Below the pieces are notes generated by a model. It saw only the letters and a program-made list of their open reading frames with translations. It had not been told where the DNA came from and searched no databases. From assembly GCA_016931955.1 (NCBI GenBank), contig JAFGDV010000012.1, positions 50,255 through 114,254 on the forward strand: a DNA stretch of 64,000 bases, written 5' to 3'. This stretch comes from Candidatus Altiarchaeota archaeon. GTDB lineage: Archaea; Altiarchaeota; Altiarchaeia; IMC4; QMZM01. Position numbers and translations under genes: made by a program. Every line of letters starts with the position of its first letter. The first letter of the stretch is position 1. This document shows positions 3,096 through 53,187 of this stretch, piece after piece.

Positions 3096-3135
3096 AAACC
3101 GTGAGGATTATCAAGATTTTTATCCAATAGATAGA

Positions 3136-8920: not shown

Positions 8921-8921
8921 A

Positions 8922-9173: not shown

Positions 9174-9179
9174 AGCATA

Positions 9180-9287
9180 CAATCTGACATAGGATACGTG
9201 TTCTACGAGATCGAGCTTGCTCTTACCGCCCCCATGCGGTCGACGAAGGGGATGGAAATAGCCGCAGACCAGGATCTCTAAGAGGAT
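9180..9287 (-). pseudogene. Relic copy 1 of the 3' end of the DPM1-like gene (matches 15624-15751)
   Basis: Minus strand reads PFVDR-(frameshift)-GGKSKLDLVEHVSYVR versus TFIDREGGKSKLNLGEHLSYVR in the intact gene. Confidence 0.85.
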
Positions 9288-9342
9288 AGGGATACAGCCG
9301 CCTGAGACACTAAAAGCCCACCGAAACATCTGATAACGGAGT

Positions 9343-9395
9343 TGTTACTTTCTGGTGTAGCATTTTTAAACATATGTTACGTTATAATGTAACAT
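9343..9395. promoter_or_regulatory. Putative operator: two TGTTAC-N8-GTA(G/A)CA palindromes 32 bp apart
   Basis: tgttactttctggtgtagca at 9343 and tgttacgttataatgtaaca at 9375, abutting the ATG. Confidence 0.6.
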
Positions 9396-10674: not shown

Positions 10675-10690
10675 AGACTAACCCAGATAC

Positions 10691-10732
10691 TCCGAGGTTT
10701 AATTTACATTTGCCGCCCACGCGGTCGACGAA
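10691..10732 (-). pseudogene. Relic copy 2 of the DPM1-like 3' end (matches 15650-15691)
   Basis: Gapless alignment, 30/42 nt; FVDRVGGKCKLNLG versus FIDREGGKSKLNLG. Confidence 0.75.
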
Positions 10733-10787
10733 TAAACAAAATTTGCCGTTACAAGGGCAAAGTTTTAAAAGAAAATTCACCCACAAA

Positions 10788-10830
10788 TGCAATATTTATG
10801 CATAAATATTGCAATAGACTGCAATATTTA
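10788..10830. promoter_or_regulatory. Putative operator: perfect 26-bp palindrome; TGCAATATTTA repeated 32 bp apart
   Basis: tgcaatatttatgcataaatattgca at 10788-10813; tgcaatattta again at 10820. Confidence 0.65.
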
Positions 10831-10854
10831 AATACAACAACCACTATATATAAC

Positions 10855-12180
10855 ATGGACAAAAACACCCTCAGAGCAACAATAATATCACAAAAAAAAG
10901 AAACAAAAAAAATACTAAAACAAGAAAAAATCATAGAAAGAGAACTACAAAAAGAAACAGAAAAACAACTAAAAAACAACCTCATCAAGATCACCACAGG
11001 CGTCAGAAGATGCGGAAAATCAACCCTCGCCCTACAAACACTCCAAGACAAAGAACACGCCTACATCAACTTCGACGACGAAAGACTCTACAAGATCACG
11101 ACAAAAGACCTCGACACAATCCTAGAAACACTATATGAAGTATACGGAAACTTCAAATACCTCCTCCTAGACGAAATACAGAACATACCTGGATGGGAGC
11201 TATACGCAAACAGACTACAAAGACAAGGCCTCAACCTCATAGTAACCGGAAGCAACGCAAAACTACTAAGCAAAGAACTTGCAACACACCTAACAGGAAG
11301 ACACATCACACTTGAACTATACCCCTTCTCCTTCAGAGAATACCTAAGCTACCACAAAATCAGCCCCCAAAAAGAAGACCTACAAATCGCAGAAGGCATC
11401 GGAAAAATCAAAAAACACCTAAGAGACTACATAGAAAAAGGCGGATTCCCCGAAACATACAAAATCAAAGACAACACAAGATACCTAAAAGACCTCTACA
11501 ACTCCATCATAAACCAAGACATCATAAGCAGATACAACATAAAATACGCAAACACGCTAAGAGAGATAATCTCCTACACCATCTCAAACTACGCAAGCCC
11601 AATAACCTACAAAAAAATAAAAAACATATTCGACATAAAAAGCCAACACACAATAAAAAACTACCTCTACTACGCAGAAGAATCATACCTGATAACCCAG
11701 AGCCTACAATACACACACAAAATAAAAGAACAAACACGACTGCCCAAAAAAATCTACGCCATAGACACAGGCCTCATAAAAGCAATAGGATTCAAGGCAT
11801 CAGAAAACACCGGCAGACTAATGGAAAACCTCATCGCAATAGAACTACAGAGAAAAAAAACACAAAACCCCCTCCTAGAAATATACCACTGGAGAGACTA
11901 CCAAAAAAGAGAAGTCGACTTCGCAGTCAAAGAAGGCCTAAAAGTAAAGGAACTAATCCAGGCATGCTACGACATCGAAGACCCAAAAACAAAGGAGAGG
12001 GAAGAAAAAGCATTGATAAAAGCCGGGAAAGAACTCAGATGCAAAAACCTCAAAATAATAACCTGGGACCACGAAGAAACAGGGAGAATAGAGTATATCC
12101 CACTATGGAAGTGGCTGCTGCAGCCGACGGGTTTTGTCCCGGCGACTGAGGAGAATGTAGTGCCTAACCCAACAAATTAG
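10855..12180 (+). CDS. AAA+ ATPase, AAA_14/DUF4143 family (copy 2)
   Basis: GVRRCGKS, LLDEIQ, TGSNA, LTGR, GGFP, YAIDTG, EVDF; start placed at MDKN because the upstream ATG lies inside the palindrome. Confidence 0.9.
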   Translation: MDKNTLRATIISQKKETKKILKQEKIIERELQKETEKQLKNNLIKITTGVRRCGKSTLALQTLQDKEHAYINFDDERLYKITTKDLDTILETLYEVYGNFKYLLLDEIQNIPGWELYANRLQRQGLNLIVTGSNAKLLSKELATHLTGRHITLELYPFSFREYLSYHKISPQKEDLQIAEGIGKIKKHLRDYIEKGGFPETYKIKDNTRYLKDLYNSIINQDIISRYNIKYANTLREIISYTISNYASPITYKKIKNIFDIKSQHTIKNYLYYAEESYLITQSLQYTHKIKEQTRLPKKIYAIDTGLIKAIGFKASENTGRLMENLIAIELQRKKTQNPLLEIYHWRDYQKREVDFAVKEGLKVKELIQACYDIEDPKTKEREEKALIKAGKELRCKNLKIITWDHEETGRIEYIPLWKWLLQPTGFVPATEENVVPNPTN

Positions 12181-12184
12181 GCAC
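12157..12184. repeat. GTAGTGCCTAAC core with inverted partner (GTGCCTAA-N9-TTAGGCAC)
   Basis: Same 12-mer as at 41622, 51826 and 51927. Confidence 0.7.
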
Positions 12185-12219
12185 CAAACCCAAAAAAAAC
12201 ACCCCGAATAGGGGAAAAC

Positions 12220-13542
12220 CTAAGGCAACCCCAATAAAGAGAAAAGCCACGCCGGAATATAATATATTACTATACTATCTGTTCCCCCTCTCCTCAGCTG
12301 ATTCCTCGTCACCAAAACCGCCTCACCTACACCGTATTTTTCGCAGAATTTAGTTAGGCTACGAATGTCTTTCTTGTTAATGTAGGTCTGATACTTGACT
12401 TCGACAGGCAGCAGCCTTTTGTCCGCTAATACAATATCCACCTCATCCTTCTGCGGCGTACGCCAGAAAGATATCTTCTGCAGACTACCCACTATCTGAG
12501 ACTCTATGAGATGACCTGCTATCCCACCACCTTCAAGCATGCTAAAGGGTTGATCCAATAACGCCAACACAATAGATGGGTGGACTATGAACTGTTTCTT
12601 GCTTGCACGCACCTGCTTAGATACGTTGACAGAGTAGTTGTAGGCCACCTTAATCAGAAAAGATTTCTCTAGTAGGCTTACATACTCTGCCGCCTGATTT
12701 CGGTTAATCCTGAGGTTGCCTGCTATGTTCACCAACTCAAAGAGTTGGGCGTTCGCCGCAGCCAGCAGCCTGAGCAATTCGTAGACCACGTTCTCATTCC
12801 CCCTGCTAGCCCGACTTATGTCTTCGACGGTTTTCTCTATCACCGACTCCCGAATATACTTTTTAATGTATTCTTCGTCGTCTTCGTCAAACAGCTCAGG
12901 GAAGGCGCCCCTCTCCAAGTATTGGATGAACAGTTCCATGTATCTAGCCCTATTCGCAGCGAAATGCAGGTCATATTCTCGTATCATGTTTTCGTTCAAG
13001 GCTATCTCGTCCCTAAGACCAAAGTATCTCACAAACTCCCTGAAGGAAAGTACTGGCAGATGAAAGGATAGTATCCTGCCGGCAAGCGTTTCCCTGTATT
13101 TCCTCAGCTCAAGAGACGATGACCCGGAGACAAAAATCTTCAGGTTCTCTTCGGTGTCATAGACAGTCTTAAGGAGATCAGGGAAGTTAGGAAGCTTCTG
13201 CACCTCGTCGAGGAAAAGATACCTCATACCTTTCCCATCAGAAAACTCCAGAAAGTAGTTGATTAGATCCCATGCCACCTCATACCTCTGGAAGTCTATG
13301 TCGTCGAAGGAGATATAGCAGACGTTCTTTTCTTCGGTCTTCACCAGAAGCTTCTTTATCATCTGCTTGAGTAAGACAGTCTTGCCTACGCGCCGCAGAC
13401 CCACGACTGCCAGAATCTGCCTATTTTGACAGTATTTGAGTAGGTCTCCCATGAGGTCTCTCTCAAACTCTGGAGTAGTGAAGTCTTTTTTCTCCCACCA
13501 CGGGTTCTGCCTGAAAAGCAGTCTACTGTGTCTTTCGTCCAT
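12220..13542 (-). CDS. AAA+ ATPase, AAA_14/DUF4143 family (copy 3)
   Basis: NPWW, GLRRVGKT, FLDEVQ, SGSSS, LAGR, GAFP; EVDIV...PVEVK nuclease-like tail. Confidence 0.9.
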   Translation of the reverse strand: MDERHSRLLFRQNPWWEKKDFTTPEFERDLMGDLLKYCQNRQILAVVGLRRVGKTVLLKQMIKKLLVKTEEKNVCYISFDDIDFQRYEVAWDLINYFLEFSDGKGMRYLFLDEVQKLPNFPDLLKTVYDTEENLKIFVSGSSSLELRKYRETLAGRILSFHLPVLSFREFVRYFGLRDEIALNENMIREYDLHFAANRARYMELFIQYLERGAFPELFDEDDEEYIKKYIRESVIEKTVEDISRASRGNENVVYELLRLLAAANAQLFELVNIAGNLRINRNQAAEYVSLLEKSFLIKVAYNYSVNVSKQVRASKKQFIVHPSIVLALLDQPFSMLEGGGIAGHLIESQIVGSLQKISFWRTPQKDEVDIVLADKRLLPVEVKYQTYINKKDIRSLTKFCEKYGVGEAVLVTRNQLRRGGTDSIVIYYIPAWLFSLLGLP

Positions 13543-13576
13543 CGTATTATCTATTAGGAAGAACATCCTTATAAAG

Positions 13577-13631
13577 TTTATGCACTAAAAACGTGCACAA
13601 AATAAAATTTTATGCACAAAAACTGTGCACA
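13577..13631. promoter_or_regulatory. Putative operator: two TGCAC-N7-GTGCA palindromes 32 bp apart
   Basis: tttatgcactaaaaacgtgcaca at 13577 and tttatgcacaaaaactgtgcaca at 13609. Confidence 0.65.
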
Positions 13632-13670
13632 GAATCTAAAAAGCCACAAGATTAAGAACGACGCTATTGA

Positions 13671-13838
13671 TTATCTCCCCAAAAAACCAGGGAAAGCATT
13701 CAAACACTACGAATAAAAAAAGAACTGGAAAAACTGAAACATATAGTCTACATCACAGAAGAAGAAAAAAACTAAAGGCCGAGCTTGCTCTTACCGCCCC
13801 CATGCGGTCGACGAAGGAGATGGAGATGGCCGCAGACC
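13671..13838. repeat. Duplicated junction: relic of the 83-aa ORF tail plus relic copy 3 of the DPM1-like 3' end
   Basis: 13671-13774 aligns with about 15501-15604; 13780-13838 is 56/59 identical to 9212-9270. Confidence 0.85.
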
Positions 13839-13965
13839 CTCAACTGCCCCAGACCCCTTGCCACAGAATCCTCAGACATTATAAGGTACAGATGACAAAA
13901 AACATAGTATTCCATCAGATACAACCAACAATATTTAAACCCAGAAAACAAAAATAAGATAAAAG

Positions 13966-15348
13966 ATGACAATCATCGACTCCCTGAAAGCCCAAAACGA
14001 ATGGTGGAAGACCGGGAAAGTACCCACAGCACTCCTAAAAAAAACCAAAAGAGAAGAATACAAGACAGCAGAAAAACTCCTCAAAGAAGAAAGAATAACC
14101 GCAATAACCGGACCACGCAGAACCGGAAAAACAACCCTCCAATACCAGCTCATACACCACCTCCTCCAAGAAACCGAACCCAACAAGATACTCTACATAT
14201 CCATGGACGACCCATCACTAAGACCCCACACACAAAACCTCCTACAAGAAATACTGGAAACCTACTACAGAGAAATCCTCCTCGAAGAAAAAAGAAACAC
14301 ACAAGTCCACGTCTTCATAGACGAAATACACTTCCACACAAACTGGGAACAATGGCTGAAAAAATACTACGACCAAAGATACCCAATAAAATTCACGATA
14401 ACAAGCTCATCCTCAGCCCACCTATCACAGAAGTCAAAAGAAAGCCTCGTCGGACGAATCATCGAAATACTACTACTCCCCCTAAGCTTCAGAAGCTACC
14501 TCGCCCTCACAGGAAAAAACCAGCTCACAGAACACTACAACAAACTCAGCCTCGAAACAATAGACGCAGACAAAAGATTCCAGCTGCTAAAACACGAAGA
14601 AGAAGCACGGATCATGTTCTCAAAATACCTCCTATACGGAGGACTGCCCGAGTCCATAAAAACAGGAGAAATACACCTATGGCAGGAAAAACTAATATCA
14701 GACGTCCTAAGAAAAGTTATATACAGAGACATCACAGGACTCTACGACGTCAGAACACCCACAAAACTCGAAGACCTCTTCGTCCACCTCACATACAACA
14801 CCAGCAAAACATTCTCATACACCTCCCTCTCCCAAAACCTCGGCATAAGCACAGAAGCCATAATAAACTACACACGCTACCTCCAGGAATCCTACCTCAT
14901 AGGCGAACTACGACTCCACACAAAAAGCATCGAAAAAAGCCTCCGAGCCAACAGAAAATACTTCATAATGGACTGCGGACTACAGAACGCCATAACAAAA
15001 ACCACCGACCTAACCGAAGCCAACACAGGCCCACTAATAGAATCCACAATCGAAAAACACCTCTACGCATACGCCAAAAAAGAAAACCACAACCTACACT
15101 ACTGGAGAGAAAAAGAAGAAGTAGACATAATACTAGACACCAAAAAAAAGACACTACCAATAGAGGTAAAATACAAAAACAAGATAAAAAAAGAAGACAT
15201 GCGAGGACTACTCAAATTCATGGACAAATACAAAACAGACAAAGGATACATGATAACCAAAGACCTCCTCCAAAAACAAAAAATCAACGGAAAAGAAATC
15301 CAACTAATACCAGCATGGCTATTCCTACTAGCAATACCCGCCGCCTAA
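13966..15348 (+). CDS. AAA+ ATPase, AAA_14/DUF4143 family (copy 4)
   Basis: NEWW, GPRRTGKT, FIDEI, LVGR, GGLP; EVDII...PIEVK. Confidence 0.9.
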   Translation: MTIIDSLKAQNEWWKTGKVPTALLKKTKREEYKTAEKLLKEERITAITGPRRTGKTTLQYQLIHHLLQETEPNKILYISMDDPSLRPHTQNLLQEILETYYREILLEEKRNTQVHVFIDEIHFHTNWEQWLKKYYDQRYPIKFTITSSSSAHLSQKSKESLVGRIIEILLLPLSFRSYLALTGKNQLTEHYNKLSLETIDADKRFQLLKHEEEARIMFSKYLLYGGLPESIKTGEIHLWQEKLISDVLRKVIYRDITGLYDVRTPTKLEDLFVHLTYNTSKTFSYTSLSQNLGISTEAIINYTRYLQESYLIGELRLHTKSIEKSLRANRKYFIMDCGLQNAITKTTDLTEANTGPLIESTIEKHLYAYAKKENHNLHYWREKEEVDIILDTKKKTLPIEVKYKNKIKKEDMRGLLKFMDKYKTDKGYMITKDLLQKQKINGKEIQLIPAWLFLLAIPAA

Positions 15349-15601
15349 AAAAAAAAGACTGAGACAACAGCCTGCTTCTTTCCCGCCTGAACATATAAAA
15401 AGATCACTATTAGCATGATCATGGTTATACAATTCAGAAACCAAGTGACTGAACCCTAAGACCTGAAAGAAATAATAGGAAACAACAACGAATCAGCTTA
15501 TAATCTATCCCCAAAAAAAAACCAGGGAAAGCATTCGAACACTACGAATAAAAAAAGATCCAGGAAAAAACCAGCCTGCATCACAGAAGAAGAAAAAAAA
15601 A

Positions 15602-16318
15602 CTACTTCAGATACAGGCGGAGACAATGCCTGACATAGGATAAGTGTTCTCCGAGATTAAGCTTGCTCTTACCGCCCTCTCGGTCAATGAAAGTGATCGG
15701 GACCTCCTTGACTCGGGAATAGCGGCCGCGAACCAGTATTTCTAAGAGGATCTTGAAGCCGACCGGGTTAAGGACGACGCCGTCAATAACTTCTCTGCGG
15801 AAGAAGAAGAAACCAGAGACCGGATCCCTGACAGAGGTGAGGGGGCGAGCCAAGAGGACAGCACCCCGAGAGGTTAGACGACGACGAAGAGGCCAATTCT
15901 GGATACAACCGCCACGGACATAGCGGCTGCCGACGGAGACATCGGCTTCGCCCCGCAAAATAGGAGCCACCAAAGCAGGAATAGCGTCTAGGGGATGAGA
16001 GAAGTCGGCGTCCATGACGCCAAATATGCCGCCCGAAGCCTGAGAGAAGCCGGCGAGGACGGCAGAGGAAAGACCTAATTTGCCGGAGCGGACGATGATT
16101 TTAAGATCGGGGTAAGGGCTTTGAAGAGAACGGACGACTTCGGCGGAGCCATCTGGGCTGTTGTCGTCTACGATGATCAGTTCACCGCGGAGGTCGTTGC
16201 GGGAAAAAACCTTGAAGAAGGCAGGAATAAGCTTGGATAAGTTCTCGCGTTCATTATAGGTGGGTACGACGACTGAGACCCTGGAGTTCTCCAAGGGAGG
16301 GAAAGAAGTCCTATGCAT
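15602..16318 (-). CDS. Polyprenol-phosphate mannosyltransferase (DPM1-like GT2)
   Basis: PTYNERENL, DDNSPDGS, GLSSA, MDADFSH, GSRY, DPVSGFF, FIDR..G.SK. Confidence 0.9.
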   Translation of the reverse strand: MHRTSFPPLENSRVSVVVPTYNERENLSKLIPAFFKVFSRNDLRGELIIVDDNSPDGSAEVVRSLQSPYPDLKIIVRSGKLGLSSAVLAGFSQASGGIFGVMDADFSHPLDAIPALVAPILRGEADVSVGSRYVRGGCIQNWPLRRRLTSRGAVLLARPLTSVRDPVSGFFFFRREVIDGVVLNPVGFKILLEILVRGRYSRVKEVPITFIDREGGKSKLNLGEHLSYVRHCLRLYLK

Positions 16319-16380
16319 GATAAAGGATATAAACAGATACGGAAATAAATAAGTTTGCTGTTATGAGGTGGGGATAATCT

Positions 16381-16442
16381 ACCCACGGATGCAATAGTTA
16401 TGCATAGATATTGTAATAGACTGCAGTATTTGGATACGATAA
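16381..16442. repeat. Orphan degenerate copy of the AAA copy-2 promoter/operator (10779-10840)
   Basis: acccacggatgcaatagttatgcatagatattgtaatagactgcagtattt versus acccacaaatgcaatatttatgcataaatattgcaatagactgcaatattt. Confidence 0.8.
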
Positions 16443-16479
16443 TAAAAGATCACTGAGGGATAATGGGAGGGGCTGCTAG

Positions 16480-16494
16480 GATAGAGGAGTTGAT
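16480..16494 (+). repeat. Left direct repeat GATAGAGGAGTTGAT flanking the AbiE-like pair (right copy 18428-18442)
   Basis: 15-bp exact match within an imperfect match of about 25 bp. Confidence 0.65.
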
Positions 16495-16562
16495 ACCCCA
16501 GTAGTCGTCGAGGACAAAGGAGAAGAAAGCCCCACGCATTTTACGGAACATACACGGTAATG

Positions 16563-16605
16563 TACTAAAAATAGTAAAAAAAATGATATTTTACTAAAAA
16601 TAGTA
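16563..16605. promoter_or_regulatory. Putative antitoxin operator: TACTAAAAATAGTA twice
   Basis: Identical 14-mers (TACTA-N4-TAGTA) at 16563 and 16592, upstream of the wHTH gene. Confidence 0.6.
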
Positions 16606-16633
16606 TTTATAGGTGAAAAACACATAACATAAC

Positions 16634-17476
16634 ATGCTAGAACTGATCTACGGGACAAAAACAAAGACCAGGATACTGGAAGAGCTCGCAACAGCAGGAA
16701 AACCAAAGACCAGAAAAGAACTAATAGAGCTGACAGGATGCGGCACCAGGGGAGTATACGAGCAGACAGAGGAACTAATAACCCTAGGCATAGTCAAAGA
16801 AACCAAGAAAGGCTGGAAAAAACTAGAGCTAAACCCAGAACACCCACTATACCAGGACATCAAAAACACGGCACTCGCAGCAATAGACTACAAAAAAAAC
16901 CTCATAAAAAACCTCCTCCAGACAATAGACCAAATACTAGAAGACGACTACTATATCGGATTCTACACAGCAGCCACAAAAAAAATCACACCAATCGACT
17001 ACACACCAGAGAAACACGTATACAAGGTACTGGACACAGAATACGAAAAAAAAATAAAGAAAATCAAAACATACGACAAACTAAGGGAAATAGACATACA
17101 AAAAGAGAAAAAAGGGTTGATTAAGGCAGTATTCCTAAAATGCCAGAAAATCCCGGAAGACGTGACAAGAGAAGAAATACAAAACCAGGAAGTGTGGATA
17201 GCAAGCACGGAGAGGGGTATAGTAGAATGCTTCACCCCAGAAAACAAATACTTCACCAGATACGGAAGCTGCCTGGCCCTGCTACAAAACAAAATAGAAA
17301 ACACAATAGACGAAAAACAACTACTGAAAATAGCAGGAGAACTCAACATAAAAAAAGAACTAGTTAAAGTCATGGGCAGCTTCAACCACCACCTCAAAAA
17401 AAGACTATTCAACGCAGAACCCAACACAGAAGAGATCAAAGAAGTCAAACAGGCGATAAACACGGTATTAGGATGA
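16634..17476 (+). CDS. wHTH protein, probable AbiEi-like antitoxin
   Basis: N-terminal HTH-like segment; ASTERGIVEC resembles the AbiEi C-terminal motif; overlaps the start of the AbiEii-like gene. Confidence 0.6.
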   Translation: MLELIYGTKTKTRILEELATAGKPKTRKELIELTGCGTRGVYEQTEELITLGIVKETKKGWKKLELNPEHPLYQDIKNTALAAIDYKKNLIKNLLQTIDQILEDDYYIGFYTAATKKITPIDYTPEKHVYKVLDTEYEKKIKKIKTYDKLREIDIQKEKKGLIKAVFLKCQKIPEDVTREEIQNQEVWIASTERGIVECFTPENKYFTRYGSCLALLQNKIENTIDEKQLLKIAGELNIKKELVKVMGSFNHHLKKRLFNAEPNTEEIKEVKQAINTVLG

Positions 17477-18432
17477 AGACAACATACACGACAGAAGAAA
17501 AAGAAGGGATCCTAGGCATAATAGAAACCTGGGGGAGAGAACAGATAACCCAAGACGTCTTCAGAAAAATACAACTACAGACAGGCATACCTTCAGGACT
17601 GATAGAGACAACATTCTGGCACATAGACACACTCTATCAGCTGAAAAAACTCGAAAAACCACCCATATTCAAAGGAGGAACCTGCGTACAATGCTACATC
17701 CCAGCAGGCCTGCAGAGAGCATCAAACGACCTAGACTTCAATTCAAGGATAGCCAACCCAGCCACCATAAGGGAGCAGATAAAAAAACTAAACAAAAAAC
17801 TGCTAAACAAAGGAAACGCCACACAGATAAAAAAATACGGCGAAAGAATAAGCTATGGAACATTCGACTACCAGCTAAAAGACGAAATATCCGGTGTTAT
17901 AACATTCAACAGGAGAATGCCCTCCCGCCTTGGAGAATACGTCAAAGCAGGCGAACTAGAGGTTCAGGCAAAAAACATGAAAATCCAGGTAAACTACAAA
18001 CACGCCTGGATGCCCGCAATAAAGACGATAGACAAAAAACCAAGATTCTTCATACTCGAACACCAAAAAATGAAAGGATTCACCTACCCAAGCTCAAGCC
18101 TGAACGACCTAATCGCCGACAAAATACTTGCAACAACAAAAGAAACGGGGAGAGAACGATTCAAAGACGTATACGACCTGATGACTCTGTTCATGCAAAA
18201 ATACGAGAAAAAACAGATACTCGAGAAACTGGAGAGGATACTGGAGAAGAAAGGGCAACAACCAGAGACCACGATAAAATCCTCGGCAACGAATATCGGG
18301 AGATTCACAGAAAAAAGCCTCGAAGCACAAGGATTCAAAAGCCTCGTATGCAAAGACGGCAGAAAACTCATAGAAAACTGGGAAACCAACTGCTTAAAGC
18401 TAACAGAGAAGATGAACTCGTTGCTGAGATAG
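17473..18432 (+). CDS. AbiEii/AbiGii-family nucleotidyltransferase toxin
   Basis: FKGGT, RASNDLDF, DKILA and RFKDVYDL motifs. Confidence 0.85.
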   Translation: MKTTYTTEEKEGILGIIETWGREQITQDVFRKIQLQTGIPSGLIETTFWHIDTLYQLKKLEKPPIFKGGTCVQCYIPAGLQRASNDLDFNSRIANPATIREQIKKLNKKLLNKGNATQIKKYGERISYGTFDYQLKDEISGVITFNRRMPSRLGEYVKAGELEVQAKNMKIQVNYKHAWMPAIKTIDKKPRFFILEHQKMKGFTYPSSSLNDLIADKILATTKETGRERFKDVYDLMTLFMQKYEKKQILEKLERILEKKGQQPETTIKSSATNIGRFTEKSLEAQGFKSLVCKDGRKLIENWETNCLKLTEKMNSLLR

Positions 18433-18562
18433 AGGAGTTGATCCCATGGAAGACCCCTTGAGGAGGAGGCTTCTCGATTAATCTTGATTAAAGATCTCAT
18501 GGTATAACCTTTAACTTCAATAGGGAGGTAGGGGTAGGGTGATATGCGTATTTATATACTTA

Positions 18563-18601
18563 TGTTCACTATAGTATACAAAATATGAGGAATTTGTTCA
18601 C
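18563..18601. promoter_or_regulatory. Putative operator: TGTTCAC repeated 32 bp apart
   Basis: tgttcac at 18563 and 18595, downstream of TATA-like tttatata. Confidence 0.5.
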
Positions 18602-18609
18602 CGAATAAG

Positions 18610-19896
18610 ATGGAGCACAGAAAAATCATAATACAATGGAAAGAATACACACCACCGAAGACACAACCCAGAGAAGTGAACATCGACCCCACAACAGACT
18701 TCATCACCACAATAACAGGCCCAAGAAGAGCAGGCAAAACATACCTCTGCTACCAGCTAATGAACCACCTAATAGACAAAGGAACCCCCCGAGAAAACAT
18801 CCTATACGTGAACTTCGAAGACGAAAAACTCATAGGGGCTAAAGCAGCAGACCTCGAAAAACTGATGAACACATTCCAAGAACTAACAGACACCAACCCA
18901 GAACACAACACCTACCTCTTCCTCGACGAAATACAGAACGTCAAAGACTGGGACGCATGGATAAGGAGAATACACGACACCCAAAAAAACGTGAAACTAA
19001 TACTCACAGGCTCATCCTCCAAGATGCTAAGCCGAGAAGTCACAACAAAACTACGCGGCAGAATACTAAACCACGAAGTATACCCCCTAAGCTTCAAAGA
19101 ATACCTCACATGGAAAAACACCCCATACAACCTAAAAACACTAACAGAAAGCAGAGACAGAATCGAAGTAAAAAAACAATACAATGAATACCTGACAAAC
19201 GGAGGCTACCCCACAATAGCACTCAACCAAGCACCCAGAGAACAGATACTCCAAAGCTACTACGAATCAATGATATTCAAGGATGTGGTAGAAAGACACA
19301 ACATCAAAGACGTCAAAAAACTGCGCATACTCGCAAAACTACTATTCGAATCCACATCAAAAGAGATGTCCTACAACAGGCTAGCAAACAAACTCAAATC
19401 CCTCGGATTCACAGCAAGCAAAAACACCATAATAGAACACATCAGCCACTTCGAAGACGCATACCTATTCTTCCAGAACATGAAACACGAGTACTCCATC
19501 ACAAAACGGATGGGTGCGATAAAAAAGATCTACTGCATAGACAACGGACTACTCAACACAGTCAGCTTCAAATTCGCAGAAGACACCGGAAAACTGATGG
19601 AAAACCAAGTCTACATAGAACTAAAACGCAGAAACAAACAAGTCTACTACCACAAAGACAAACACGAATGCGACTTCCTCACACAAGAAAAAAACAAGAT
19701 CACATCAGCCATACAAGTAACCCACACACTAAACGACGAAAACGAAGACCGAGAAATAAACGGCCTACTTGAAGCCATGAGAACCCACAACCTACAAGAT
19801 GGAACCATCCTCACCTTCGAACAAGAAGAGACAAGAAAAAAAGACGACAAAACAATACGGATCACACCAGTCTGGAAGTGGCTGCTGGAGACATGA
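18610..19896 (+). CDS. AAA+ ATPase, AAA_14/DUF4143 family (copy 5)
   Basis: GPRRAGKT, FLDEIQ, TGSSS, LRGR, GGYP, YCIDNG, ECDF. Confidence 0.9.
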   Translation: MEHRKIIIQWKEYTPPKTQPREVNIDPTTDFITTITGPRRAGKTYLCYQLMNHLIDKGTPRENILYVNFEDEKLIGAKAADLEKLMNTFQELTDTNPEHNTYLFLDEIQNVKDWDAWIRRIHDTQKNVKLILTGSSSKMLSREVTTKLRGRILNHEVYPLSFKEYLTWKNTPYNLKTLTESRDRIEVKKQYNEYLTNGGYPTIALNQAPREQILQSYYESMIFKDVVERHNIKDVKKLRILAKLLFESTSKEMSYNRLANKLKSLGFTASKNTIIEHISHFEDAYLFFQNMKHEYSITKRMGAIKKIYCIDNGLLNTVSFKFAEDTGKLMENQVYIELKRRNKQVYYHKDKHECDFLTQEKNKITSAIQVTHTLNDENEDREINGLLEAMRTHNLQDGTILTFEQEETRKKDDKTIRITPVWKWLLET

Positions 19897-19967
19897 GATC
19901 GAAAGAAAAACAGACCAGAGAGTATCTTTGTTGACCAAAATTTATAAATAATGGACAACATAGATGT

Positions 19968-20042
19968 AAAGTGATAACATGGGACCGCGAAGAAAAAGGG
20001 AGAATAGAATACATACCACTATGGAAGTGGCTGCTGGAATAA
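19968..20042 (+). pseudogene. Orphan 3' end of a gene resembling AAA copy 2
   Basis: KVITWDREEKGRIEYIPLWKWLLE* versus KIITWDHEETGRIEYIPLWKWLLQ (12052-12123). Confidence 0.85.
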
Positions 20043-41404: not shown

Positions 41405-41436
41405 GGGAGACTATGTATTGCTGCTAAGCGATTTGG

Positions 41437-41633
41437 TCGAGCTTTTCTAAAGCTCGAGGGTGAACCTTTAGCAAAGGTTGCTGGCGGATGGATCGGTAAC
41501 AGGTGAATCTGCGGAAGCAGATTCCATTCTTTTTCGCCAATGTTTTCCGTCAAAACTGCTGTAGCAGTTTTGGGCGCCAAAATCGGAGATTTTGAGTGTC
41601 TTTCTAGGAAAAAGGTTGCTGGTAGTGCCTAAC
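41437..41633. repeat. Cluster of short hairpins ending in GTAGTGCCTAAC
   Basis: tcgagcttt-tct-aaagctcga, aaccttt-agc-aaaggtt, gaatctgc-ggaa-gcagattc, caaaactgct-gt-agcagttttg, caaaatc-gga-gattttg; core at 41622. Confidence 0.75.
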
Positions 41634-41641
41634 TGGGAGAG

Positions 41642-41769
41642 TATATCAATATATTTATATATCAATATAGTTTCATATAACTACATTTACATACTGAAGT
41701 AGAACTATGATAGCATACTAGCATATCCACATATCAACATAATTCTATATGACCATATCTGCATGTCAA
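41642..41769. repeat. 16 x 8-bp degenerate tandem array (YATA-type, e.g. CATATCAA)
   Basis: 14 of 16 in-phase octamers begin with YAT. Confidence 0.7.
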
Positions 41770-41773: not shown

Positions 41774-43045
41774 TCAGACTTGTTCGCCGCCTAGGACGTA
41801 TATTTGTTCGCCGAACTGCAGCACGTTCAGTGAGATGTTCACCTTATCGCCTACTTCGGTGTCAGCCTTCAATAGTGCGCTGAAGTTCTCGTTGTTTGGT
41901 ACCATGACCACTTGGTTGCTGATGACTACCTTAGATGGCAGTATGACGTATCCCGTCTTGCTGAAGGAGGCATTCGTCATGCCCGCGTTTTTTAGTGTTT
42001 CCCCTATTTCCATGAGGTCTGATTCCTTTGAAGCCGTGAACATGATACCCCCAGGGTTCAGGGAATAGTTCACCCCCACAGCAGCCAGGATCTCCTTAAC
42101 CCCTGAGTGAGATTTGTTGGCGTATATTATCGTCCTATTGTCTGAGTGCGAAGCCGACACCCCCTCAAGTCTATTTACCCTCTCGAGGGTTTCGTTGTCT
42201 ATTGTCTTGTTCACCATGAACCTTGGCGGCATTACCTCGACCTCCGTTGCCTGCAGCCCGGAGAGCATCTCAGGATGGAAGTCCGATTCTATGACTGCCT
42301 GCGCTAGTATCCCTGTTATGTTTATTGCTTCTGCGTTAACGACTTGGCCTGAAGGGACCCTCTCACTAACGAAGCCGAGCACTCCGCTAAAGAAGCCCTC
42401 TTTTGTTTTCATGAGTGGGAAGGCCAGGAAGTATTCCCCCACCCGGGTATCGAAGCTGCATGGTATGTAGGCTGTGTCGGTTCCAGGACCTGAGATATTC
42501 ACTGGCAGGGTGCCGATGCATGCCCTCATGAAGTCGTGGTTGCCTCTCCCAACATTTGAGTCCATTATCTTCTTCAATGTAAGCGTCTGGTTTTCATCAA
42601 CCTCGTCGAATATGAACCTGCATAGTAGGTAGGTCCCTGACAGGAAACGCTCTCCAGTGTAGGGGTTCTCCACTATTTGTGGATTACCCACTTCGATGAT
42701 TATCTCCTTAAGCCCTGGGAGTGATGTGTTCTGGATAGCCTCTATCGTGTCGAATTCGACGGCTGCTGTGATCCTCGAGATCAGCTCGGGTCTTACTTCC
42801 CTGATCGATGTGAGTATGGTAGAATTGAATATCTCTTCAACAGTGTAGGCATCCACTTCTGGGAAGCTGGATTCCCCCCCAGAGGAGGTTCTGTCGGAGA
42901 GGAACAGTATAGACAAGGCTGACAACAGCATGACGCCTATGATGACATAGATCAGTATATTTGAGCCTTTCTTTCCCTCCTTCTGCTTTGAGCCTTTCTT
43001 CTCCTCCTGCTGCGTCGCCCTGAACTTTTTCTTCTTTTTCGCCAT
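41774..43045 (-). CDS. Membrane-anchored hypothetical protein
   Basis: Basic N-terminus, a single TM segment, many N-x-S/T sites. Confidence 0.65.
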   Translation of the reverse strand: MAKKKKKFRATQQEEKKGSKQKEGKKGSNILIYVIIGVMLLSALSILFLSDRTSSGGESSFPEVDAYTVEEIFNSTILTSIREVRPELISRITAAVEFDTIEAIQNTSLPGLKEIIIEVGNPQIVENPYTGERFLSGTYLLCRFIFDEVDENQTLTLKKIMDSNVGRGNHDFMRACIGTLPVNISGPGTDTAYIPCSFDTRVGEYFLAFPLMKTKEGFFSGVLGFVSERVPSGQVVNAEAINITGILAQAVIESDFHPEMLSGLQATEVEVMPPRFMVNKTIDNETLERVNRLEGVSASHSDNRTIIYANKSHSGVKEILAAVGVNYSLNPGGIMFTASKESDLMEIGETLKNAGMTNASFSKTGYVILPSKVVISNQVVMVPNNENFSALLKADTEVGDKVNISLNVLQFGEQIYVLGGEQV

Positions 43046-49222: not shown

Positions 49223-50941
49223 ATGGGACCTGACTTTGAAGTGAGGGATAAAGACGTCGGCGGGAGGATTGGGAAGCTCAACATAGATAATAAGACCGTT
49301 GAAACGCCGTTGCTGATGCCGGTATACAATCCAAACAAGCCCCTGATAAGCATAGAAGAACTGAGGGATAGATTCAACCTAAAGGCCTTGATGACTAATT
49401 CCTACCTTATGTTGAAGGATGACACCCTCAGGGAGAAGGTGCTCGCGGAGGGCGTCCACAAGTACCTGAACTTCGATGGTTTAATAGCAACTGATTCAGG
49501 CTCATTTCAGCTGATGTCGTATGGGAGCGTTTCCACGACGAATAGGGGGATAATAGAGTTCCAGGAAAGGATCGGCTCAGACATAGGCTCCTTCCTCGAT
49601 ATACCCTCGCTGCCAGATTCTTATAAGCCCCGGGCGGCTGAGGAATTAGATACCTCCTTGGAGAGGGCTAAGGAAGCATTGAACGCAAAGTTTGTCGTCA
49701 ACGCCGGCATTCAGGGTTCAACGCACCTCGACCTCAGGAAGAAGGCTGCCTTAGGAATCGGGGGAAACTTCAGGCTGTGCGCCGTTGGTGGCATCGTCAG
49801 GTTGATGGAGGATTACCGTTTCTCTGACCTCGTGGATATCATCGCAACGGTGAAAGAGAATCTGCCTTCAGATAGGATTGTTCACGCCTTCGGCTTAGGT
49901 CATCCTATGGTTTTTTCTCTCGCTGCCGCCCTCGGATGCGACCTTTTTGATTCCGCTGCCTACGCCCTCTACGCCCAAGATGGTAGGTATATGACTGAGG
50001 CTGGGACGAAGAGGCTGGACAACTTGGATTATCTGCCGTGCTCCTGTCCAATCTGCAGTAAGTATGGTATGGAACTAAGGGAGTTAGAGGAGGGGGAACG
50101 GATTAAAAACCTGGCCTTACATAATCTCTACATCAGCTTTGAGGAATTGAACAGGGTCAAGCAGGCTATCAGGGAGGGTAGTCTCTGGGAGCTGTTGTCC
50201 ATGCGCACCAGATCACATCCAGGGCTTTTTTCAGCCCTCAGTAGGTTATCTGACCATAGTGGATGGCTTTCCAGGCTCGACCCCATCACAAAGAAGACAC
50301 CATTCTATTACACGGGAAGGGAATCCAGGTACAGATCCGAGGTCGTGAATGCGCGTAAAAGGATGAAGAGGGTTTCATCCGTTAACAGGATAAGACTTCA
50401 GCCCTTTGGCAGAGTGCCTGTTGAAGTCTTGGACGTCTACCCCTTCGGGAGCTTCAGTTCGCCTGAGGGTGTGGTCAGAGAGGATCCACCTTTTAGCGTT
50501 AGAGACATCGAGAAGTTACGAGCCATTATGGAGTACCAGTTCGGCAGTGGTGCCTCAGACCTTATAGAGGATGGCTTCAGGATAAAGAAGTCCAGGAAGA
50601 CTGGGAGGATCAGATGGATTTATAGGAAAAAAGAACTTGTCGCCTCAGTGCGCGCATCGGATCACATGATAATACCCAAACAGTATCTTGCGGAAAAACT
50701 CAGGGAGAGATTCAAGTACCCGAAGCTTAGGGTTGTCATTGATGATGAAGCTGTTCCCTTTGTCTCCGAGGGGAAGAGCGTCTTCGCCAGATTCGTTGTA
50801 TGGGTGGATCCTGATTTGAGGGCTAATGACGAGGTCTTAGTAGTTGATCGAAAGGACGAGCTTATCAGGACCGGTACATTGGTTCTCGCACCTAAGGAGG
50901 CTATTGATTTTAGTAGGGGTGTTGCCGTCAGGGTCAGATGA
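49223..50941 (+). CDS. tgtA: Archaeosine tRNA-guanine(15) transglycosylase with PUA domain
   Basis: ETP..MPV, TDSGSFQL, HAFGLGHP, DLFDSAAYALYA, CSCPIC; PUA GKSVFARFV. Confidence 0.95.
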   Translation: MGPDFEVRDKDVGGRIGKLNIDNKTVETPLLMPVYNPNKPLISIEELRDRFNLKALMTNSYLMLKDDTLREKVLAEGVHKYLNFDGLIATDSGSFQLMSYGSVSTTNRGIIEFQERIGSDIGSFLDIPSLPDSYKPRAAEELDTSLERAKEALNAKFVVNAGIQGSTHLDLRKKAALGIGGNFRLCAVGGIVRLMEDYRFSDLVDIIATVKENLPSDRIVHAFGLGHPMVFSLAAALGCDLFDSAAYALYAQDGRYMTEAGTKRLDNLDYLPCSCPICSKYGMELRELEEGERIKNLALHNLYISFEELNRVKQAIREGSLWELLSMRTRSHPGLFSALSRLSDHSGWLSRLDPITKKTPFYYTGRESRYRSEVVNARKRMKRVSSVNRIRLQPFGRVPVEVLDVYPFGSFSSPEGVVREDPPFSVRDIEKLRAIMEYQFGSGASDLIEDGFRIKKSRKTGRIRWIYRKKELVASVRASDHMIIPKQYLAEKLRERFKYPKLRVVIDDEAVPFVSEGKSVFARFVVWVDPDLRANDEVLVVDRKDELIRTGTLVLAPKEAIDFSRGVAVRVR

Positions 50942-51752
50942 ACTGGAGGGGAAAATAGATTTCATACCGCTCCTGTCTGCTTTTTTCTTCTCCTTGCAGG
51001 TAGTTGCATAGGTAGTATGGTAGGTAGACTATTCCGTCAAAGACTGCCTCAGCTAGGAAAAGTTTCCCAAGGAGCTCGGATACCTCCCCACTTGAGTGCT
51101 CGACTGGGTCTTTTGGGTATGTTGTGTGTTGTACTTCATCTACTTTTAGAAGGGATTCCAGGTCATAGGCTTTGTCTTCAATCTTTGGCACATGTATCTT
51201 TGACCGTACATAGTAGTTCTCTTCAGGGTAACCGTAGCCCCTGGATGCGACCTCTGCTATTCCCATGACGCTGTCGGTTTTTGATGAATAGGCTTCAATG
51301 AGGCCTCTCTGCATTAGTAGTACCATGTTCTTTTCATCCAGTTGATTTTGGAGTTGCTCGTATCTGACGCTCCCGAATTCAATAAGATCCAGCAGGAGAT
51401 CGCTTGCTTCCTCTGGCAGATCTTTGAGTACTATGAGGATGTCTGAATGCTCGACAGCTGGTTTAGAAAGCAACGCTTTTTTGACGTAGAAGAGCTCTAA
51501 ATGGGCTAGGTCGGCGTAGACTGTGTTTTGTTTCTCTTCGTGGGCTTGCTTCCTGAATACTGCCCCCTTTTTTTTCTTTTCTTCTCTAAAAACGTTGAAT
51601 CTGCCAAGTGGTATGTATCTCTTCTCTATCTGATCGATTCTTTCCTCTGAACCTAGGAACAGGATCTTCTTTTTTCTCTTGGATTCGAAATATCTCTTGG
51701 CTTCTTCAGAGTTTTCTGTGAGAGCGAATGCTTTCTCAGCCGAGTCATCCAT
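50934..51752 (-). CDS. Hypothetical protein
   Basis: 272-aa ORF with protein-like composition and no recognised motif. Confidence 0.6.
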   Translation of the reverse strand: MDDSAEKAFALTENSEEAKRYFESKRKKKILFLGSEERIDQIEKRYIPLGRFNVFREEKKKKGAVFRKQAHEEKQNTVYADLAHLELFYVKKALLSKPAVEHSDILIVLKDLPEEASDLLLDLIEFGSVRYEQLQNQLDEKNMVLLMQRGLIEAYSSKTDSVMGIAEVASRGYGYPEENYYVRSKIHVPKIEDKAYDLESLLKVDEVQHTTYPKDPVEHSSGEVSELLGKLFLAEAVFDGIVYLPYYLCNYLQGEEKSRQERYEIYFPLQFI

Positions 51753-51825
51753 GGTTATCTCTTATGTGCGAGTGCGTATAAATCCAATGGAAAAAATTGC
51801 TGATATTTTGAGATGGCGAGATATT

Positions 51826-52219
51826 GTAGTGCCTAACTGAGATGGTGTTGATACACAAAAAATCCATTGTGTGTTATCGAGCGCGGCGAAGATAACACCT
51901 TTGATCAACCTTTAGCAAAGGTTCCTGTAGTGCCTAACTATCAATCCTAGATGTATGGTATCAACATACCAATATACCAACATGTTTTTGTATTGCCATA
52001 TCAATATGTTATTCTTAGATACGTCTATGGTGCGGCTAAGCGTAAGCGCATGCCGCACATTTGATCAACCTTTAGCAAAGGTTGTTATAGTGCCTAACGC
52101 GAGGATATGCAAACGTATCAAATGACAAAGTACCCACGTCTATGGATTGTCGAAACTTGCTTTGCAAGTTTCCTTTGGGATGATAACCCTTTTCTAAAGG
52201 GTTATCTGTAGTGCCTAAT
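51826..52219. repeat. Array of four (G/A)TAGTGCCTAA cores, three of them preceded by a double hairpin
   Basis: Cores at 51826, 51927, 52087 and 52208; tttgatcaacctttagcaaaggtt identical at 51900 and 52060. Confidence 0.85.
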
Positions 52220-52244
52220 ATATCTTTGTGTGTAATACTATACA

Positions 52245-52415
52245 ATGTCCTACATTCGAACCAAGAGGATTAAGGGTGGGATCTATTATTACCTGGTGAA
52301 GTCTGTTAGGGAGGGTAGGAGGGTTTATCAGGTTAATCTCGCATATATTGGTGCTGTGAAGCCCAGCAAGGAGGCGGTCAGGAAACTGAAGAAGAAGTAT
52401 GATAGGGCTACTTGA
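52245..52415 (+). CDS. Small basic protein (56 aa) resembling the N-terminal segment of IS1634-type transposases
   Basis: MSYIRTKRIKGGIYYYLVKSVREGRRVYQVNLAYIG...; shorter than any ORF in the track. Confidence 0.6.
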   Translation: MSYIRTKRIKGGIYYYLVKSVREGRRVYQVNLAYIGAVKPSKEAVRKLKKKYDRAT

Positions 52416-53187
52416 CGACGCCTATCCTGTTGACTGGGCAGCTTTTTTTCTCACTGATCCTTGAGAGGGCTTCATATTCTTTCTCTGAAGCGAAGACTAT
52501 GAAGTTGTCCAGGTTCCGTGTCATGGGGAACTGAATCCCTGACTCAAGCTGGAATCTGAGGCCTGACTTCTCAGACATCTCGTATAGTGTTGATACCAGC
52601 CCCCCTTTTGTCACATCCTTTGCAGCATGTATCTCCACCTTCTCCAGGACCTCAAACCATGTCTCGAAGAGTTTCTGCGCCTTCAGTATTCTTTCTTCTT
52701 GGCTGCCCCAGATGGGCTCACCCACTAACGTCATTATGTCGCCTGGTTTCATGGAATTATCCCTGATGGGTTCATCCAACAAAAGCTCGCCGAAGACTGT
52801 TATGCTGCACCTGGGTTCGACCTCTTCGAAGAGCGTGTTTCCTCCGAGGATGGGTATCCTCATGGCCAAAGCCTGCCTTTTAAGGCTCTCAGCCATCTCC
52901 TTGACCTCCTCCCTGGTTCCGATCAACGTGTCTAAGGCGAACAATGGCCTGCCTCCTTTGACGACGACATCCGTTACTGCATGTATCAAAGCCGACTTCA
53001 TGACCAGCCTCTTGGTGTAGGGGCCGTCTACGCTGGCCAGAAGCTTTTTGTCTCCGAATCCTATGCAGACTGAATCATCCCAGTCCCTGATGCCCATTAT
53101 CGGCTTCAGTAGATCATCCATCTCAGAGAAATAGGCGTGAAGCCAGTCCAGTGATTTCACGTACCTCTCTATGAGTTCTTCCTCCAT
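52408..53187 (-). CDS. AIR synthase-related (PurM/ThiL superfamily) protein
   Basis: DDSV, SVDG, D.VVKGGRP, ILGGNT, KDVTKGGL. Confidence 0.8.
   Translation of the reverse strand: MEEELIERYVKSLDWLHAYFSEMDDLLKPIMGIRDWDDSVCIGFGDKKLLASVDGPYTKRLVMKSALIHAVTDVVVKGGRPLFALDTLIGTREEVKEMAESLKRQALAMRIPILGGNTLFEEVEPRCSITVFGELLLDEPIRDNSMKPGDIMTLVGEPIWGSQEERILKAQKLFETWFEVLEKVEIHAAKDVTKGGLVSTLYEMSEKSGLRFQLESGIQFPMTRNLDNFIVFASEKEYEALSRISEKKSCPVNRIGVVK

Follow-up and report, generated by a model that had tools for sequence, protein, structure and literature searches.

The stretch of DNA analysed here (the window, 64,000 nucleotides from the genome of a Candidatus Altiarchaeota archaeon) contains at 51825-52219 a short array in which a constant word of 13-14 nt, TGTAGTGCCTAAC(T), recurs four times on the plus strand, with paired hairpins between the copies and a gene for a protein of 56 amino acids directly downstream. 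The word, referred to below as the core, has sharp edges and is very probably a real cis-element that is maintained by selection. Judged from its sequence context, the core would appear to be the cognate site of the 56-amino-acid protein, an assignment that is made with slight rather than strong confidence. The array itself may be a stack of four operators for a sequence-specific factor, most likely this protein, with palindromes of the type that trail tRNA genes lying between them, a reading on which our confidence is evenly balanced. By analogy with known systems, the dispersed cores might in addition act as polar barriers, a proposal that is put forward only tentatively.

Distribution, selection and polarity of the core

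The genome that carries the window (G000) was examined as a 1.55 Mb assembly that is 92% complete, and the reversed word served as the control. The exact 13-mer occurs 15 times in this genome and the reversed word not at all. With up to one mismatch the word and the control are found 19 and 2 times, respectively, and with up to two mismatches 32 and 20 times, so that the exact copies are surrounded by almost no halo of decayed ones. When 117 unique sites are aligned on their central 10-mer, the logo reads T89 G98 [TAGTGCCTAA] C91 T80 followed by pyrimidines, and it holds no information beyond these positions. Within the 64-kb window, the 11-mer at up to one mismatch is found six times, always on the plus strand, where 0.55 copies are expected and none of 100 shuffles reached six.

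Of 41 relatives, 32 have the exact 13-mer, all 21 members of the family among them, and a single genome can have as many as 58 copies. Across the phylum it was found in 38 of 61 genomes, in which about 440 matches stand against 2 for the control. A scan of named public genomes with the 14-mer returned, among the matches listed, many single bacterial matches that are presumably due to chance, and repeated matches in metagenome-assembled genomes (MAGs) labelled Ca. Altiarchaeota or Altiarchaeales, Micrarchaeota, Iainarchaeum or simply 'archaeon'. Five genomes that were reached from the MAGs with the last three labels contain 2, 2, 6, 7 and 20 exact copies at a G+C content of 33-60%, with a total of one for the control. 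Neither the core nor its complement has an exact match in 16S rRNA, where at most 11-12 of the 13 positions can pair when G-U pairs are allowed.

The behaviour of the word inside genes and its orientation were determined on 95 unique cores from this genome and from fetched loci. Twenty-four of these cores lie within open reading frames (ORFs) of at least 100 amino acids, in 20 cases with the reverse complement on the sense strand. Such cores nearly always read xxG TTA GGC ACT ACA, which encodes LGTT, in about a dozen unrelated genes that include trpC, aspartate dehydrogenase and TatD-like, TnpB and TiaS-like genes. Among the 12 trpC orthologues that were parsed in the family, 9 have identical LGTT codons, and free variation is seen at the synonymous positions nearby; two further genomes differ by one synonymous base, and the genomes with a changed word have changed amino acids as well. 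No insertion is seen at the core site in the alignment of aspartate dehydrogenase, nor in trpC, and this pattern points to purifying selection on the nucleic-acid word and not to an insertion scar. Chance was also considered for the matches inside genes and was ruled out by the conservation in trpC and by the numbers in this genome, where 2 of the 15 exact cores lie in genes (trpC and glycogen synthase) and only about 0.05 exact 13-mers are expected by chance genome-wide. Among the genes with an internal core is a full-length TnpB of 394 amino acids in another genome (G018, L030 832-2016), whose GIDLN motif is closely preceded by an in-frame core (EKLGTTGKK); a paralogue (L033) has one as well.

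Polarity relative to genes was scored with the core written on the plus strand and with the nearest ORF of at least 100 amino acids within 400 nt taken as the neighbour. The neighbour on the 3' side lies on the minus strand in 46 cases and on the plus strand in 2, with no call in 23, while the neighbour on the 5' side lies on the plus strand in 31 cases and on the minus strand in 25. The constant feature is a gene that ends toward the 3' side of the core and has the reverse complement of the core on its sense strand, either just after the stop codon or inside the gene. Distances between core and gene cluster from -4 to about 30 nt, and the stop codon is often supplied by the core itself. The loci of this genome alone display the same polarity as the whole sample. 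Long contigs contain cores in mixed orientation, so that a tie to the direction of replication is disfavoured. A role of the core as a promoter element of the transcription factor B recognition type, or as an ordinary terminator of the upstream gene, was rejected; only about one core in two is followed by a TATA-like run, and the downstream gene points the same way in no more than 2 of 48 cases.

The small gene and its product

The most conserved location of the core, across several lineages, is 0-45 nt upstream of the 56-amino-acid gene, which lies in the window at 52245-52415 on the plus strand, belongs to a family referred to here as 'YYYLV' and encodes the candidate core-recognising protein. 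The gene is kept throughout the order, and an alignment of 28 sequences has the invariant residues R5, K7, G11, Y14, Y16, V18, Q29, Y34 and G36. A core of at least the 10-mer stands within about 100 nt upstream of the small gene at about 13 of some 31 loci examined. It is on the same strand as the gene in G000, G001, G002, G005, G010, G012, G014/G018, G015, G019 and G024, and G030 has a reversed 10-mer. An upstream core is usually followed directly by a TATA-like TTTTATA.

The arrangement recurs outside the immediate relatives. In a genome of another family (G024), one unit upstream of the gene has the order of the array, namely hairpin, tttgat, hairpin and core. Outside the phylum, a genome with the label Iainarchaeum (G041) has a core 8 nt before the ATG of the small gene, and one labelled Micrarchaeota (G044) has two upstream cores, the nearer at a distance of 8-11 nt from the start codon. 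G042 has no more than two exact cores, both upstream of a gene with the same domain, at 2 and 67 nt from its ATG; there the YYYLV domain (L263, C4 23114-23260) is fused to a glycyl-tRNA synthetase in an open frame of 543 amino acids. A further genome, G022, has no exact core, and its homologue (58 amino acids, 35% identity) is encoded by the first ORF of a 2.1-kb insertion sequence (L300, C234, about 852-2939, reverse strand) with 11-bp terminal inverted repeats GGCTGTCCGAC and a transposase of 555 amino acids. The end of this element is present at no fewer than six contig ends of that genome. Variant words, TAATGCCTAAT and AATGTCTAA, stand 11 and about 60 nt upstream of the homologue, and the genome has 9 copies of the variant word and 2 of the control, most of the former within copies of the element's end.

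Co-distribution was assessed in the 61 genomes by comparing the presence of a strong stand-alone homologue (E <= 1e-17) with that of the exact 13-mer. Both are present in 30 genomes and neither in 19; 4 genomes have only the homologue (the 11-mer is present in three of them) and 8, which are incomplete, have only the core.

An AlphaFold2 model of the protein that was built with an alignment has a predicted local distance difference test score of 90, and consists of three long antiparallel strands (residues 2-9, 12-23 and 26-36) and a helix (42-55). This topology fits a three-stranded antiparallel sheet packed on a C-terminal helix, the pattern of AP2 and arm-type domains, without a significant structural match. 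The sequence has no match in Pfam or NCBIfam, a sequence search of the PDB gave only chance matches, and a word-indexed homologue search returned only the protein itself. A profile search of 1.84 billion representatives, by comparison, returned 2403 relatives at E <= 0.001, many of which are stand-alone proteins of 50-75 amino acids. The YYYLV domain is also found at the N-terminus of a DDE transposase (P0142) and of Fic, Zeta-toxin, ART and ATLF-like proteins, and these fusions fit a portable nucleic-acid-binding module. One of the Fic fusions, 298 amino acids in length, is encoded in this genome (G000:C35, about 3100-3985).

The array, its hairpins and the surrounding genes

The sequence-only reading of this region had described four cores of the same orientation at spacings of 101, 160 and 121 bp, several hairpin sequences, a tttg linker and a repeated acgtctatgg, and all of these were located in the sequence as described. 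Core copies 1 (51825-51837) and 2 (51926-51938) are exact TGTAGTGCCTAAC, copy 3 (52086-52098) is the variant TATAGTGCCTAAC and copy 4 (52207-52219) the variant TGTAGTGCCTAAT; like everything else in the array they are read on the plus strand. The end of copy 4 merges into a TATA-like TAATATAT, 26 nt 5' of the ATG of the small gene. Paired hairpins precede copies 2, 3 and 4. In unit 1 (51871-51923) they are gtgttatc/gataacac (51871-78/51891-98) and, after the linker ctttgat, aaccttt-agc-aaaggtt. Unit 2 starts with an A+T-rich spacer (51939-52029), which holds ATATCAATAT (51998-52007) and acgtctatgg, and continues at 52030-52083 with gtgcggc/gccgcac (52030-36/52052-58), which encloses an inner stem with a GTAA loop, the linker atttgat and a second hairpin, caaccttt-agc-aaaggttg. 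Unit 3 (52152-52206) consists of gaaacttgc/gcaagtttc (52152-60/52164-72), the linker ctttggg and gataacccttt-tct-aaagggttatc. The two copies of acgtctatgg are at 52021-30 and 52136-45.

RNA folding of units 2 and 3 is better than that of shuffled sequences (z = -2.4 and -4.6), whereas unit 1 folds no better than shuffles (z = -0.66), though both of its inverted repeats are present in the sequence. Homologues of unit 2 were found on contigs C28 and C4 and in G024, and the second hairpin of unit 3 occurs at six further places in the genome, three of which adjoin tRNA genes. The proposal that the hairpins are conserved in structure and variable in sequence is borne out by covariation between copies, as gtgcGgc/gcCgcac in the array corresponds to gtgcAgc/gcTgcac in G024 and to gtgcAAc/gTTgcac on contig C4. 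Many loops resemble GNRA or UUCG loops. Scans of the window for tRNA genes and, at the gathering score, for Rfam families found nothing, and Rfam gave no match even at E <= 5 over 51700-52300. DNA run X1 yielded a contig of 394 nt that corresponds exactly to 51825-52218, from the first to the last core, at a depth about twice that of the flanking contig. No variant joint was seen in this run, and the 394-nt record is uninformative on variation in copy number. Two metatranscriptome runs of the same study yielded nothing for this DNA, a result that is uninformative about expression.

The unit of hairpin, hairpin and core that had been proposed from the sequence is present in the array, but the core is not necessarily accompanied by hairpins, and what is constant is the word of 13-14 nt. 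Of 93 exact cores, only 10 have a hairpin of at least 6 bp within 6 nt upstream and 2 have one on the opposite side; for random positions the figure is 7 of 300. Eight of the 10 upstream hairpins are CTTT...AAAG palindromes. Similar palindromes trail tRNA genes. In 12 of the 14 tRNA genes found without an intron search, the palindrome atagCCCTTTTCTTTT-nnn-AAAAGAAAAGtgctat lies directly 3' of the gene and provides a T-run on either strand, and it is followed by catcccaaaag and then by more small hairpins. Furthermore, 8 of 21 tRNA genes have a direct repeat of their own 3' end, 10-25 nt in length and starting in or just after the T-loop, 79-130 nt downstream, after which another such T-run/A-run palindrome follows. 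Examples of these trailers are found in this genome at C9 19072-19350, C30 18450-18720, C22 7591-7860 and C24 27171-27565. They look like cassettes of about 100 nt that were inserted at tRNA 3' ends, or like the product of a tandem duplication. Read on the opposite strand, the core takes up, relative to such hairpins, precisely the position that the tRNA 3' end or its repeat has in these trailers, and one chain that is split over two overlapping contig ends runs from a tRNA through hairpins to a core. Since the hairpins adjoin few cores and trail tRNA genes, the unit of the array is seen as a local composite of the 13-mer and terminator-like palindromes. Terminator-like hairpin cassettes between tRNA genes and the repeats of their own 3' ends may themselves matter for the stability of tRNA genes or for integration in archaea.

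The array fills much of an intergenic region (51753-52244) whose upstream border is a gene of 272 amino acids and no known family (50934-51752, minus strand), divergent from the array and syntenic in G001 and G002. On the other side, an AIR-synthase-related gene (52408-53187, minus strand) has its 3' end toward the array, which is the usual polarity of cores, and the 56-amino-acid ORF, nested on the opposite strand between the cores and this facing gene, overlaps its 3' end by 8 nt. The neighbouring genes are archaeal housekeeping genes and include those for archaeosine tRNA-guanine transglycosylase, O-phosphoseryl-tRNA synthetase, diphthamide synthesis and HMG-CoA reductase.

Two further core sites lie in the window. 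A second hairpin chain (41436-41633, plus strand; RNA fold z = -3.0) ends in GGTAGTGCCTAAC (41621-41633); it follows a Ham1 gene and faces the 3' end of the gene at 41774-43045 on the minus strand. The word aaggttgctgg is repeated here (41463-41484 and 41601-41622) around a hairpin-rich stretch of about 137 bp just 5' of the core, which looks like an insertion with an 11-bp duplication. A solo core without a hairpin (12156-12168, plus strand) stands at the end of an AAA_14 ATPase gene and faces the 3' end of the next gene on the minus strand. It lies within a region (6001-20000) that has a strong excess of A over T on the plus strand (AT skew up to 0.50) and a G+C content below that of the rest of the window. 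In addition, the window has 5 copies of another short word, ATATCAAYAT, where 0.34 are expected (its sites include 41643-41740 and 51998-52007), and 4 of the 5 copies are no more than about 130 nt downstream of a core. Similar gatatcaacat repeats are found 3' of a core in G002 (L029) and also in a tRNA-Val trailer.

Interpretation, rival explanations and related systems

In the mechanism proposed here, the 56-amino-acid protein would bind the word on DNA, with TGTAGTGCCTAACT as a candidate target, and would control its own gene, upstream of which the four cores, the last of them merging into the TATA-like box, would form an operator stack. Elsewhere in the genome, the protein and the dispersed cores would together constitute a one-way obstacle to polymerases that move in the direction of the core. 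Such a barrier would keep antisense or convergent transcription out of the gene on the 3' side and would leave the copies inside genes harmless to sense transcription, and the same direction would make a core upstream of the small gene repressive. Tandem copies and T-run palindromes would reinforce the block, the latter by adding intrinsic termination in both directions. The polarity may also be the reverse, in which case the core would terminate the facing gene. The most far-reaching version, in which a domesticated transposon regulator and its operator word form an unrecognised protein-DNA system of small-genome archaea (Altiarchaeota and the MAGs labelled Micrarchaeota and Iainarchaeum) and serve, spread by the host to gene ends and coding regions, as a one-way barrier to antisense transcription or head-on traffic, an archaeal counterpart of Tus-Ter or Reb1-type insulators, is more doubtful than the barrier role itself.

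Several observations weigh against the operator and barrier interpretation. About 18 of the some 31 small-gene loci lack an upstream core; most of family f7 is among them, and there the small gene comes after another gene. Five genomes that have three or more cores (G016, G017, G036, G039 and G052; 70-89% complete) yielded no strong homologue, and the four genomes mentioned above have a homologue and no exact 13-mer. The domain is not identified by its fold, as a Foldseek search with the model gave nothing at E <= 0.001; in VIA-align the best Z was 5.5, and the integrase arm-type domain 3jtz reached only 3.5, among many ties. Because the fold matches are weak and tied, the AP2/arm-type resemblance, which the strand pattern suggests, is not established. 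Moreover, an asymmetric site of 13-14 bp is long for a single monomer of 56 amino acids. As for the barrier, the counts of polarity and of cores inside genes include orthologous loci and are hence not independent, G041 has two cores inside genes on the sense strand, where they read VVPN, and, if the analogy is followed, a polar barrier alone would not account for the conservation of the sites inside genes. The inversion of a gene cassette and the variable number of units, both described below, fit recombination equally well.

The sequence-only reading had placed the array among recombination or nick sites, naming integron integrases and HUH enzymes, and it had set the array apart from CRISPR arrays. 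The last point holds, because the constant part measures only 13 nt and recurs at spacings of 101, 160 and 121, as opposed to identical repeats of 24-48 nt with spacers of similar length. The integron assignment fails: only the RYYYAAC-like half of an attC site is present, all four cores are on one strand and the units contain no GTTRRRY; since this inverse-core partner is absent, the units of the array are not attC sites. Nor was an integron integrase or another fitting enzyme identified. The 92%-complete genome has no match to PF01797 (the Y1 HUH transposase) and none to PF07282 (TnpB), with positive controls matched, and no serine recombinase or IS1634-like transposase was detected in it; the TnpB of G018 simply has an in-frame core. 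HUH elements (IS200/IS605, PATE and REP/RAYT) have in every copy a subterminal hairpin at a set distance from the cleavage word, which is not seen here, as only 10 of the 93 cores have an adjacent hairpin. A search with PF00589 found one gene in the genome, beside tRNA-Cys on another contig. The family of this gene is the sole tyrosine-recombinase family, it is found in 20 of 41 relatives, and it was rejected as the enzyme of the core, as it is patchy, integrates at tRNA genes and does not track the core. The gene (403 amino acids, L068/L081, G000:C38 51049-52453) lies 120 nt after tRNA-Cys, which is one of the two tRNA genes without a hairpin trailer, and is probably part of an integrated element. 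Miniature inverted-repeat transposable elements (MITEs) are not indicated either, as there is no conservation beyond 14-16 nt around the cores and nearby pairs are direct, not inverted. An IS1634-like element in G026 has inverted repeats of 34 bp whose inner ends, GTAGTG..., bear a weak likeness to the core; no clear terminal repeats were found for the IS1634-like elements of G010 and G019.

Recombination in a broader sense retains real support, even if it is improbable as the explanation of the core. The core would then resemble an att site or a transposon end, at which short hairpin cassettes were inserted and gene cassettes inverted, and the small protein would be an accessory DNA binder derived from an insertion sequence. 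The variation between genomes that the sequence-only reading anticipated does exist: unit number and content differ between genera with breaks at the cores, as the syntenic locus has one core without hairpins in G001, two cores about 275 bp apart in G002, two in G024 and four in this genome. In other genomes tandem cores are only 17-40 nt apart, and partial cores stand beside full ones. A pair of genes for an OB-fold protein and the phosphoserine phosphatase serB is flanked by inverted cores in five genomes (G000, L001, C28 9948-11601; and G006, G013, G015 and G017, at L069, L070, L071 and L072), and this cassette is inverted relative to the flanking AAA-ATPase and aspartate-dehydrogenase genes when G000 is compared with G013, G015 and G017 (the flanks in G006 were not seen). 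The hairpin modules between 8 of 21 tRNA genes and the repeats of their 3' ends, the small gene on the insertion sequence of G022 and the fusion to the DDE transposase in P0142 point in the same direction. Opposed to this are the failure to find a recombinase that tracks the core, with Y1 HUH transposase, TnpB and serine recombinase absent from the genome, a strict gene polarity that would be unexpected for att sites, and hairpins at only about 11% of the cores. In G022, moreover, the variant word lies upstream of the first ORF and not within the terminal inverted repeats, and the opposite end of the element lacks it. The core is also unlike a mere insertion scar, being kept letter for letter in housekeeping genes without an insertion, strictly polar and tied across phyla to one small gene. 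Still narrower is the view that the cores are ends or targets of a known mobile family (integron attC, IS200/IS605, repetitive extragenic palindromic (REP) sequences with their RAYT transposases, or MITEs), which has been refuted in large part and is scarcely tenable. Its appeal comes from motifs and setting: GCCTAAC fits RYYYAAC, which we take to be the inverse core, and GTAG is presumably the conserved REP tetranucleotide; the elements are hairpin-rich, extragenic and mosaic, like bacterial interspersed mosaic elements (BIMEs); and many cores lie near contig ends in draft genomes. The lack of a paired GTTRRRY, of a Y1 transposase or TnpB and of any conservation beyond 14-16 nt, the direct orientation of short-range pairs and the conservation of copies inside genes speak against it.

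An explanation at the level of RNA is less likely again than recombination. Here the reverse complement of the core, GUUAGGCACUACA, would act in the 3' untranslated region or the coding sequence of sense transcripts as a signal for 3'-end processing, for stability or for pairing with a small RNA that uses the core as its seed, and the array would encode sibling small RNAs or a structured trailer. The strand bias (46 vs 2 between genes, 20 vs 4 inside them) would suit such a role, as would the GNRA- and UUCG-like loops, the compensatory changes in the stems, the fusion of the small domain to glycyl-tRNA synthetase in G042 and the presence of PC4- and Pur-alpha-like single-strand binders among the weak fold matches. 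Furthermore, the reversed core takes the position of the tRNA 3' end before the same trailer hairpins, and its 13 nt equal the sum of the 3' strand of the T-stem (5), the 3' strand of the acceptor (7) and the discriminator (1). However, upstream of the small gene the sense strand carries the core itself and not its complement in nearly all lineages, so that one RNA orientation cannot explain both classes of sites. There is also no Rfam match at E <= 5 at the array and no complementarity to 16S rRNA, no guide RNA locus was found, and a processing signal would be harmful within coding regions. Finally, a word that propagates itself and is kept by biased transmission, in the manner of DNA-uptake sequences or of a gene-conversion drive, is very unlikely, even though the exact word in many genera and several phyla of very different G+C content, its in-frame occurrence in genes with a preferred reading frame and its patchiness across phyla would all be compatible with one. 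Known DNA-uptake sequences occur about once per kb, and 1-58 copies per genome, or about one per 25-100 kb or fewer, are far below this density; nor would such a word be expected to have a strong polarity relative to transcription and a fixed association with a small gene.

To our knowledge, very few dispersed cis-elements with a known reader are described in archaea, and no Ter, parS or insulator-like sites have been established for these uncultured lineages. That the system is uncharacterised, as the sequence-only reading supposed, agrees with full-text searches of the literature, in which no description of the motif was found; among the matches listed, the 11-mer, its reverse complement and the 10-mer gave only unrelated primers, and none on repeats in Altiarchaeota was relevant. 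The word is unusual in that it is exact across genera and apparently phyla, is retained at synonymous sites in trpC, has a near-perfect polarity and is tied to a tiny gene of no known family. If the interpretation is true, it could throw light on the insulation of convergent genes in compact archaeal genomes or on the domestication of a transposon regulator. The motif may also be of use as a metagenomic marker of these lineages. Systems in which a small protein binds a dispersed word are of a known kind, and this one would be a new form of it.

The closest counterparts are the replication barriers Tus-Ter of E. coli and RTP-Ter of B. subtilis, which are polar protein-DNA barriers with asymmetric sites of about 13 bases, a few to tens per genome. 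Some Ter sites lie within genes, their action depends on orientation, and one is directly upstream of the autoregulated gene of the binding protein. The core is likewise asymmetric and polar (46 vs 2), with a copy upstream of the gene of the candidate protein, which is a matter of resemblance only. In contrast to these systems, the protein is an unrelated one of 56 amino acids that consists of a sheet and a helix, the orientation of the sites follows genes and not replication, and there are tandem arrays with hairpins. A second counterpart is formed by the 'Sal box' sites of TTF-I and those of Reb1, short, oriented and tandem sites that follow eukaryotic rDNA units, with one upstream of the promoter, and that act together with T-rich release elements. 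The tandem, oriented short sites behind genes, the one just 5' of a promoter and the T-rich elements nearby suggest an analogous arrangement; the core differs in being archaeal and genome-wide, beyond rDNA, and its function is putative.

Mobile systems offer partial likenesses as well. As in the REP/BIME-RAYT system, the word is dispersed and extragenic, forms mosaic units with palindromes and accompanies a small gene that lies beside copies of its presumed cognate word, but no HUH or GIY-YIG enzyme is found here, the word is not palindromic, selection acts on the copies inside genes and the polarity is strict. Integron attC sites similarly have a short fixed core, which GCCTAAC fits, beside hairpins conserved in structure and variable in sequence, in arrays of one orientation; they differ in having an R'/L' partner and a single long imperfect hairpin, and the cores described here also occur singly and in genes. 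The last comparison is with the OrfA-type proteins encoded by the first ORF of insertion sequences and with lambda-like arm-type sites, in which a small protein or N-terminal domain recognises direct-repeat sites upstream of its own gene. The homologue of G022 is indeed the first ORF of an insertion sequence and P0142 is a fusion to a DDE transposase, with 3jtz providing only a weak fold match (Z 3.5). Unlike these, the small gene of the window is chromosomal, syntenic across genera and without a link to a transposase, and its putative sites are spread over the whole genome.

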